Source of the DNA: Escherichia coli
GTDB taxonomy: Bacteria; Pseudomonadota; Gammaproteobacteria; Enterobacterales; Enterobacteriaceae
Strand: one strand, 5' to 3'
DNA: 64,000 nucleotides
NCBI RefSeq assembly: GCF_050920415.1
Contig: NZ_CP169309.1
The position numbers and the translations under genes are program-made. The notes under the pieces were generated by a model. The model made no database searches. It was not told where the DNA came from and saw only the letters and a list, made by a program, of their open reading frames with translations. Positions 11,206 to 40,629 of the stretch are shown here, one piece after another (the stretch's first letter is position 1; the number at the start of each line of letters is the position of its first letter).

Positions 11206-11281
<76 letters not shown>

Positions 11282-11316
11282 TTGGGTGGTCTGTGCTTTG
11301 CAGCACTTTCAAATTT

Positions 11317-11392
<76 letters not shown>

Positions 11393-25768: not shown

Positions 25769-26302
25769 ATGCGCCTGCTCCCTCTCGTTGCCGCAGCGAC
25801 AGCTGCATTCCTGGTCGTTGCCTGCAGTTCTCCTACGCCGCCGCGTGGCGTGACAGTAGTGAATAATTTCGACGCCAAACGTTATCTCGGTACCTGGTAT
25901 GAGATTGCCCGTTTTGATCACCGCTTTGAACGTGGACTGGAAAAAGTCACCGCAACATACAGTCTGCGGGATGATGGCGGCCTGAATGTCATTAATAAAG
26001 GCTATAATCCTGACAGAGAAATGTGGCAGCAGAGTGAAGGGAAAGCGTACTTTACCGGCGCACCAACTCGCGCTGCGCTGAAAGTGTCATTCTTTGGTCC
26101 TTTCTATGGCGGTTATAACGTTATTGCACTCGATCGGGAATACCGCCATGCGCTGGTTTGCGGCCCGGACCGCGACTACCTGTGGATACTCTCCCGCACG
26201 CCAACCATTTCTGACGAAGTGAAACAGGAAATGCTGGCAGTCGCGACCCGGGAAGGGTTTGATGTCAGTAAGTTTATTTGGGTACAGCAGCCCGGTAGTT
26301 AG
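25769..26302 (+). CDS. blc: Outer membrane lipoprotein Blc (bacterial lipocalin)
   Basis: 177-aa ORF with lipobox (VVACSS) and lipocalin motif GTWYEIA. Confidence 0.93.
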
Positions 26303-26616
26303 TGAGTGCTGAGTTTCAGACCAATAATCCCCAATACGATTAACGCCAGGCTCGCCAGGCGCATCGGGTTAGCGGACTCACCGAGCAGCACAATACCGGT
26401 GATGGCCGCGCCGACTGCGCCAATACCCGTCCACACGGCATAAGCTGTCCCTACTGGTAACGATTTCATCGCCCAGGCAAGTAGCGCCATACTGACAATC
26501 ATCGCCGTCACGGTAATAACACTTGGCGTCAAACGACTAAAGCCGTGGGTATATTTCAGGCCAACGGCCCATACCACTTCCAGCAGGCCAGCAATAACTA
26601 AGATAATCCAGGACAT
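26299..26616 (-). CDS. gdx: Guanidinium exporter Gdx (SugE), SMR family
   Basis: ORF-track 126 aa; start set at [21 protein letters not shown]... (105 aa), four-TM SMR protein. Confidence 0.9.
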
Positions 26617-26634
26617 ATCAGGCTCCGGAGAATT

Positions 26635-26680
26635 GGGGCCGTCCCCGGTGAAAAGAGGCGTTTGCAGGTCGTCCTGCAAA
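26635..26680 (-). promoter_or_regulatory. Guanidine-II riboswitch (mini-ykkC) in the gdx leader
   Basis: On the minus strand, two hairpins with ACGR tetraloops (GCAGG-ACGA-CCTGC and GGGG-ACGG-CCCC) about 15 nt apart, immediately upstream of the gdx SD/ATG. Confidence 0.6.
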
Positions 26681-26790
26681 GCTGATGGTTGAACGGGTAT
26701 TTTGCCAGGTGGCAGGGGAATTTCAACTATTACCTTAGTGACTATCGCAAAAAAACAAACGGCACGACACAGCTGTCGTACCGTTATTGC

Positions 26791-26937
26791 TTATTGCTGT
26801 GCTTTTGTTGCTGCACCAGAAATCGCGTTACCGCCATCAGAGATATCTTCACCAACGCCACGCGTGGTGTTGCAGGCAGTTAATACTGTTGAAAGCACCA
26901 GAACAGAAAAGATCGCTGCAATTGTCTTCTTCACCAT
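26791..26937 (-). CDS. ecnB: Entericidin B lipoprotein
   Basis: 48-aa [51 protein letters not shown]; below the ORF-track size cut-off; lipobox LTAC. Confidence 0.85.
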
Positions 26938-27047: not shown

Positions 27048-27173
27048 TTAGCTGGCAGCGCGGGAGATGGAGTTGCCGAGATGTTTGATATCTTCGCCGA
27101 AACCGCGAGCGGTGTTACAGCCCGTGAGCAGCGTGCTGGCAAGCAAAACAAGAACGATAAGGCGTTTCATCAT
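27048..27173 (-). CDS. ecnA: Entericidin A lipoprotein
   Basis: 41-aa [44 protein letters not shown]; lipobox LTGC. Confidence 0.85.
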
Positions 27174-40553: not shown

Positions 40554-40629
40554 GCCCGGATAGCTCAGTCGGTAGAGCAGGGGATTGAAAATCCCCGTGT
40601 CCTTGGTTCGATTCCGAGTCCGGGCACCA
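40554..40629 (+). tRNA. pheU: tRNA-Phe (anticodon GAA)
   Basis: GCCCGGATAGCTCAGTCGGTAGAGCAGGGGATTGAAAATCCCCGTGTCCTTGGTTCGATTCCGAGTCCGGGCACCA. Confidence 0.95.

Follow-up and report, generated by a model that had tools for sequence, protein, structure and literature searches.

The guanidine-II riboswitch is regarded as a translational ON switch, in which guanidinium stabilises a kissing interaction between two hairpins, P1 and P2, and the Shine-Dalgarno (SD) sequence becomes exposed (PMC9300104, PMC5558903, PMC9094411). The leader of Escherichia coli sugE, also called gdx, is a guanidine-II riboswitch that binds guanidinium (Gdm+) with a KD of about 130 µM, and NMR and SAXS work on the sugE leader RNA has revealed new G-C imino signals, which represent G-C pairs between the two loops (PMC9300104). 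A 47-mer of the same RNA adopts an intrastrand kissing state in smFRET experiments, and the crystal structure 5NDI is cited as the E. coli SugE P1 homodimer (PMC9094411); reviews likewise name E. coli sugE among the guanidine-II targets. In vivo, Gdm+ induces a Cs+ resistance that depends on gdx, and a 20-bp deletion upstream of gdx, ZX-1 (delAGAATTGGGGCCGTCCCCGG), leads to constitutive gdx expression, as judged by RNA-seq with n = 1, which measures the mRNA level and not translation (PMC13064478).

We examined a stretch of E. coli chromosomal DNA of 64,000 nucleotides (hereafter referred to as the window), in which the RefSeq gene order is frdDCB-ampC-blc-sugE-ecnB-ecnA-efp-epmB. A preliminary description of the sequence had placed a guanidine-II (mini-ykkC) riboswitch on the minus strand directly upstream of gdx. 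Scanning the whole window with Rfam 15, the kind of covariance-model scan that this description had named as a check, gave a clear match to RF01068 (Guanidine-II/mini-ykkC) at positions 26680..26634 of the minus strand, with a score of 50.4 bits (gathering score, 32). The match covers positions 1-48 of the 48 model positions (E = 5e-7 for the whole window and 2e-8 locally) and is the sole riboswitch match in the 64 kb at gathering thresholds; a permissive local Rfam scan found no competing RNA family at the site with E <= 1. Elsewhere in the window, the gathering-level matches were two tandem tRNA-Gly(GCC) genes at 11206-11392 (minus strand) and one tRNA-Phe(GAA) gene at 40554-40629 (plus strand).

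Both hairpins carry the GGACGRCC core, as GG-ACGA-CC in P1 and GG-ACGG-CC in P2. A search of the window for GGACGRCC-N15-45-GGACGRCC gave a single match, and 100 dinucleotide-preserving shuffles gave none. The element combines a score above the gathering threshold with a pair of ACGR-capped hairpins closed by G-C pairs, a linker of variable length and stems that covary among orthologs (see below), and it lies where guanidine-II riboswitches are placed, in a 5' leader next to the ribosome-binding site (RBS) of a guanidine-related gene, gdx. The coordinates of the leader and its surroundings are collected in Table 1.

Table 1. Features of the gdx (sugE) leader and its surroundings, in positions of the window
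Feature	Position	Strand	Basis
Terminator-like hairpin after ecnB, 12 bp + T-run	26758-26785	minus	terminator scan
Promoter-like site: TTGAAA (26726-26721), 16-nt spacer, TG-extended CAAAAT (26704-26699)	26699..26726	minus	consensus scan
P1 hairpin: UUUGCAGG / ACGA loop (26672-26669) / CCUGCAAA, 8 bp	26661..26680	minus	Rfam alignment; MFE and centroid folds
Linker L1/2: CGCCUCUUUUCACC, 14 nt, includes CUCU (anti-SD of the literature)	26647..26660	minus	sequence, Rfam alignment
P2 hairpin: GGGG / ACGG loop (26642-26639) / CCCC, 4 bp	26635..26646	minus	Rfam alignment
Segment lost in ZX-1: CCGGGGACGGCCCCAAUUCU, i.e. P2 + AAUUCU	26629..26648	minus	exact, unique match of the published sequence
Expression platform: spacer AAUUCUCC (8 nt), SD GGAG (26626-26623), CCUGAU	26617..26634	minus	sequence
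gdx start codon ATG	26616-26614	minus	sequence
gdx (sugE) CDS, 105 aa, SMR-family guanidinium/H+ antiporter	26299..26616	minus	NCBIfam NF008512, RefSeq

Every part of the architecture that the preliminary description had given, GC-rich paired hairpins with ACGA and ACGG loops on the minus strand upstream of gdx, is present in the sequence, and its estimate of some 15 nt between the stems compares well with the 14 nt that we measured. The linker has this length by the stem boundaries and 13 nt in the alignment register that gives P2 a fifth position. P2 ends 18 nt before the gdx ATG and the SD ends 6 nt before it; to call the second hairpin adjacent to the SD was therefore roughly fair, with 8 nt actually separating the two. 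The range assigned to the riboswitch, 26617-26700, needs narrowing as well: it spans the entire 5' leader, and the aptamer proper occupies only 26634-26680.

The product of gdx matches the SugE/Gdx equivalog NF008512 over residues 1-104 with 193.5 bits (cut-off, 126), has the length of about 105 residues and the Glu13 expected of a Gdx protein, and is listed in RefSeq as sugE, WP_000118482.1. The nearest solved structures belong to the 6wk5/6wk8 set, with E = 1.5e-32; the name under which they were deposited is 'Multidrug resistance protein, SMR family'. On the other side of the leader, NCBIfam recognises ecnB (26791-26937) and ecnA (27048-27173 region), and the strong hairpin after ecnB sets the entericidin transcript apart from the gdx leader. 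At its 3' end, gdx converges with blc (plus strand, 25769-26302); the two coding regions overlap by 4 bp at 26299-26302, which leaves no intergenic room for terminators.

From P1 to the ATG the sequence is identical to that of K-12; within the leader the two differ only at 26697 (C/T), a short way downstream of the putative -10 element. Among 5426 complete E. coli genomes, a 551-bp region around the riboswitch was found in 5424, and 5422 keep 80% or more of the 104-nt leader, nearly always at an identity of at least 95%. The element is thus the E. coli guanidine-II riboswitch of the gdx/sugE leader, already known and extensively characterised. The identity proposed in the preliminary description holds on all counts considered: the full-length RF01068 match, the SugE/Gdx equivalog downstream, the covarying motif at gdx orthologs and the literature on this same E. 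coli leader. Its remark that an annotation restricted to ORFs misses the element was also borne out, in that the RefSeq PGAP records examined list no riboswitch feature between ecnB and sugE.

To assess conservation, we selected 80 gdx loci by a Gdx protein scan of a genome collection that ignored the RNA; they come from Enterobacterales, Alpha- and Betaproteobacteria, Acidobacteria, Bacteroidetes and other groups. RF01068 was detected at gathering level in 45 of them, in 44 cases directly upstream of the gdx homolog, and all of the 19 intact Enterobacterales loci carry it. A match at L068:545-589 lies about 900 nt upstream of its gdx homolog, not adjacent to it, and presumably controls an upstream gene of the operon. 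The other 35 loci (L024, L026, L028, L030-L035, L038 and others) have no guanidine riboswitch of any class within 1.5 kb at gathering level, and neither the window nor the 80 loci gave a gathering-level match to guanidine-I, -III or -IV riboswitches. The distance from motif to start codon is 12-66 nt in the 44 loci and 12-28 nt in most of them; L023 and a Mesorhizobium-like group have 43-65 nt. Eight loci of the Mesorhizobium type (L050, L051, L056, L064, L066, L069, L071 and L076) have an additional hairpin (e.g. AGCAUC...GAUGCU) before the SD, within a gap of 43-65 nt. This arrangement suggests a relay-type expression platform, unlike the short enterobacterial one.

Covariation was evaluated with 42 distinct leaders in an alignment anchored on both loops. 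The core columns are invariant in these orthologs, and 91.8% of the cells are paired, as compared with 33-59% when the 3' partners were slid. Compensatory double changes occur at 10 of the 13 pairs, including 7 of the 8 in P1 and 2-3 in P2, and the covariation score of 0.645, obtained from sequences that are phylogenetically related, exceeds that of shuffled alignments (0.18; none of 500 reaches it) and of slid controls (at most 0.25). While the sequence of P1 varies freely with compensation, the GGGG/CCCC stem of P2 is far more constrained in sequence. The linkers, 12-22 nt long among the orthologs, show scant sequence conservation. Both loops are ACGA in 27 loci; 13 loci combine an ACGA loop in P1 with an ACGG loop in P2, and 5 have the reverse combination. 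ACGG loops in both hairpins occur in none of the 45 loci, in agreement with the published observation that double-G variants are rare (PMC9300104).

These patterns bear on whether the element is functional at all. The ORF listing reports an in-frame ORF of 126 aa that begins at a TTG at 26679, so that the hairpins could in principle be part of an N-terminally extended SugE, or else chance GC-rich palindromes. We consider the likelihood of either to be practically nil: the NF008512 alignment begins at the first residue of the 105-aa protein, a GGAG SD precedes the ATG at 26616, the ortholog linker lengths vary by non-multiples of 3, the stems show compensatory changes instead of codon-like conservation, and the shuffled windows lack the motif. 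The TTG-initiated ORF through the aptamer was discarded as a mechanical artefact in view of the NF008512 start, the linker lengths and the stem covariation.

The mechanism that we propose builds on what the sequences show of the motif: how significant and how conserved it is, how its stems covary and where it lies with respect to the SD and the ATG. The binding of the ligand, the formation of the kissing complex and the effect in vivo are taken from the literature on this same RNA. We conclude that the riboswitch very probably governs the initiation of gdx/sugE translation as an ON switch. The primary output is most likely translation, not transcription or RNA stability, and the SD-occluding bases and the promoter named below are putative. 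The gdx transcript probably arises from its own promoter, with a start some 10-15 nt upstream of P1, since a sigma-70-like site follows the terminator-like hairpin of ecnB and is conserved, in both its -35 and -10 blocks, in a Citrobacter-type plasmid copy of the gene. The site has 9 of 12 consensus matches, a score expected about 0.9 times by chance in the region and hence weak on its own. Transcription from just after the ecnB terminator would yield a short leader with an ACGA-capped P1 and an ACGG-capped P2. In the ligand-free state, P2, with its 4 bp, would be only marginally stable, and the G of its loop and its CCCC arm, together with neighbouring bases, would pair with the GGAGCC of the RBS and with the start-codon region, so that initiation would be poor without ligand. 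Guanidinium is expected to bind the ACGR loops and to stabilise the loop-loop (kissing) complex of P1 and P2 through C-G pairs between the loops; this complex would lock the P2 hairpin, remove the competitor of the SD and allow the exporter to be translated.

To see which bases might occlude the SD, we folded the free leader as an unconstrained ensemble (26692..26585). P1 forms in the MFE fold, in the centroid and in the free ensemble, and the G residues of the SD have probabilities of only 0.01-0.07 of being unpaired. Their pairing partners in the free ensemble are the 3' arm of P2 (summed probability 1.82), the coding region (0.70) and the linker (0.36). The MFE fold also pairs the GGGAC of P2 with a GUCCU at the start codon. 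In the model, opening the stretch from SD-2 to AUG+5 costs 7.65 kcal/mol in the free wild-type leader, 6.67 kcal/mol when both hairpins are locked and 5.81 kcal/mol in the ZX-1 deletion. The state energies follow the expected order and lie only 1-2 kcal/mol apart, which is consistent with the proposed switch and not decisive. Two of the SD G residues, moreover, stay mostly paired in the locked state, in a hairpin (UCCGG/CUGGA) that they form locally with codons 2-4. Because of the small energy gaps and this residual pairing, nearest-neighbour folding is no proof of the switch, and it does not represent the kissing complex.

In the published drawings the anti-SD is not P2 and lies in the linker: the CUCU of L1/2 would pair with GGAG, and kissing would pull the linker off the SD. 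This model was set out for P. aeruginosa (PMC5558903, Reiss & Strobel) and has been drawn for E. coli (PMC9300104 and PMC9094411, Schamber et al. and Fuks et al.). The linker CUCU can indeed pair with GGAG, with one G-U pair; the linker holds some of the SD pairing in the free ensemble, as given above, and a UCU/CUCU tract is retained in enterobacterial linkers. When CUCU was changed to GAGA in silico, however, the modelled cost of opening the RBS did not fall and rose from 7.65 to 9.41 kcal/mol. In addition, ZX-1 keeps the whole linker, moved nearer to the SD, and yet gives constitutive expression.

The comparison of the 45 leaders points in the same direction. The RBS duplex with the P2 loop and 3' arm has a mean energy of -7.2 kcal/mol and a z-score of -0.74 relative to shuffled RBSs, with 20 of the 45 leaders below -1; these z-scores are only partly independent, because a G-rich SD inherently complements a C-rich arm and the sequences are related. 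For the longer linker, the mean duplex energy is -5.6 kcal/mol and the mean z-score +0.09, which is the shuffled expectation, even though five single leaders (L006, L007, L012, L017 and L052) fall below -1. In three leaders of the Bradyrhizobium type, GAGGGUCGUC complements GACGACCCU perfectly over 9 bp (-18.6 kcal/mol). Within the Enterobacteriaceae, the ACGG loop of P2 goes with GGAGC(C/U) and the ACGA of L005 and L014 with GGAGUC. Covariation between position 4 of the P2 loop and the base after GGAG (N5) was considered as a possible proof and rejected: the A-loop loci have U at N5 in 9 cases, C in 9 and G in 7. As clades differ in their pairing register, the correlation is not general.

Taken together, these results lead us to regard occlusion of the SD by the linker as unlikely in the gdx leaders, and to prefer, with moderate confidence, the P2 loop and 3' arm as the anti-SD, an idea that is itself not new. 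In E. coli, the GGCCCC formed by the P2 loop G and the 3' arm is the likely anti-SD of the ligand-free state. The conservation of the P2 stem beyond what a hairpin needs would fit such a dual role. If P2 is the anti-SD, guanidine binding and SD occlusion would compete for identical nucleotides.

An effect on the mRNA level as the main output deserves separate consideration. The riboswitch could act through guanidine-dependent protection from RNase E or Rho, or P1 and the following CGCCUCUUUU could form an attenuator. The terminator scan does flag P1 + CGCCTCTTTT, ZX-1 was detected as a raised level of gdx mRNA by RNA-seq (PMC13064478), and control of RNA stability has been documented for guanidine-III (PMC9094411 and a review). 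The U-run after P1, however, is only 4 nt long and begins 6 nt past the stem, the tract that follows P1 is not conserved outside the Enterobacteriaceae, and P1 is needed in the ligand-bound ON state, the wrong polarity of a terminator for an ON switch. In most loci P2 lies consistently 12-28 nt from the start codon, as is typical of a translational platform, and a higher mRNA level can follow secondarily from translation. An mRNA-level main output thus appears very improbable to us, and P1 + CGCCTCTTTT was rejected as a transcription terminator for its short, displaced U-run, wrong polarity and unconserved tract. Control of mRNA stability or by Rho may nevertheless be an added layer to translational control, given that ZX-1 was detected at the mRNA level.

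Altered alleles of the leader exist in natural isolates and on plasmids. E. coli strain 167, a urine isolate (NZ_CM132950.1, L084), has a 29-nt deletion that corresponds to 26659..26631 of the window. It drops the linker, all of P2 and AAUU, with P1, the SD and gdx remaining; the deleted leader gives no Rfam match to RF01068. This allele is a natural analogue of ZX-1, although it could be an assembly artefact. In the Citrobacter-derived blaCMY-2-blc-sugE plasmid module, 602 records preserve the complete riboswitch (47.2 bits in L083). A further 64, about 10% of the plasmid records of this module that we examined, are cut inside the P1 loop at a shared junction and also lack the promoter. An example of these truncated copies, from the IncC plasmid NZ_CP031362.1 of Salmonella Heidelberg (L082:2452-2552; intact comparison, L083:2500-2611), retains only the P1 3' arm, the linker, P2 and the SD.

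The joint reading, that P2 serves as the anti-SD in gdx leaders including that of E. coli, that switch-breaking alleles circulate and that these alter the expression of the exporter, making it constitutive or uninducible, is one that we offer tentatively, as quite possible rather than probable. If it is true, the broken alleles possibly affect the tolerance to disinfectants and guanidinium compounds; such alleles could bear on how sugE-linked biocide-tolerance phenotypes are interpreted.

Because element, ligand, structure and gene are all established, the locus itself opens nothing new. The modest additions of the present analysis are the comparative support for an anti-SD in P2 rather than in the linker, and the broken alleles from nature and from plasmids. 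For annotation, it points to a genuine regulatory RNA that is absent from the RefSeq gene tables, and the riboswitch explains the silence of gdx/sugE without guanidinium, a gene that is still named 'quaternary ammonium compound efflux'.

Among known systems, the guanidine-I (ykkC), -III and -IV riboswitches share with guanidine-II the ligand and the kinds of genes controlled (gdx/sugE, guanidine carboxylase), whereas their folds are unrelated to that of guanidine-II, and classes I and IV act on transcription. The published E. coli sugE/gdx representative of guanidine-II has the same hairpins, loops, 14-nt linker and RBS position as the element in the window, which differs from it in neither aptamer nor platform. 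The guanidine-II riboswitch of Gloeobacter violaceus (Huang, Wang & Lilley 2017), according to the passages of that study on which we draw, has the same architecture in a different species, with different stems and a different spacing to the RBS (6 bp stated there vs 8 nt in E. coli). A comparative test of the P2/RBS stem-loop idea does not figure in these passages. They describe a stem-loop that overlaps P2 and the RBS and is mutually exclusive with the folded riboswitch, and this is the type of OFF state that we favour for the gdx leaders.
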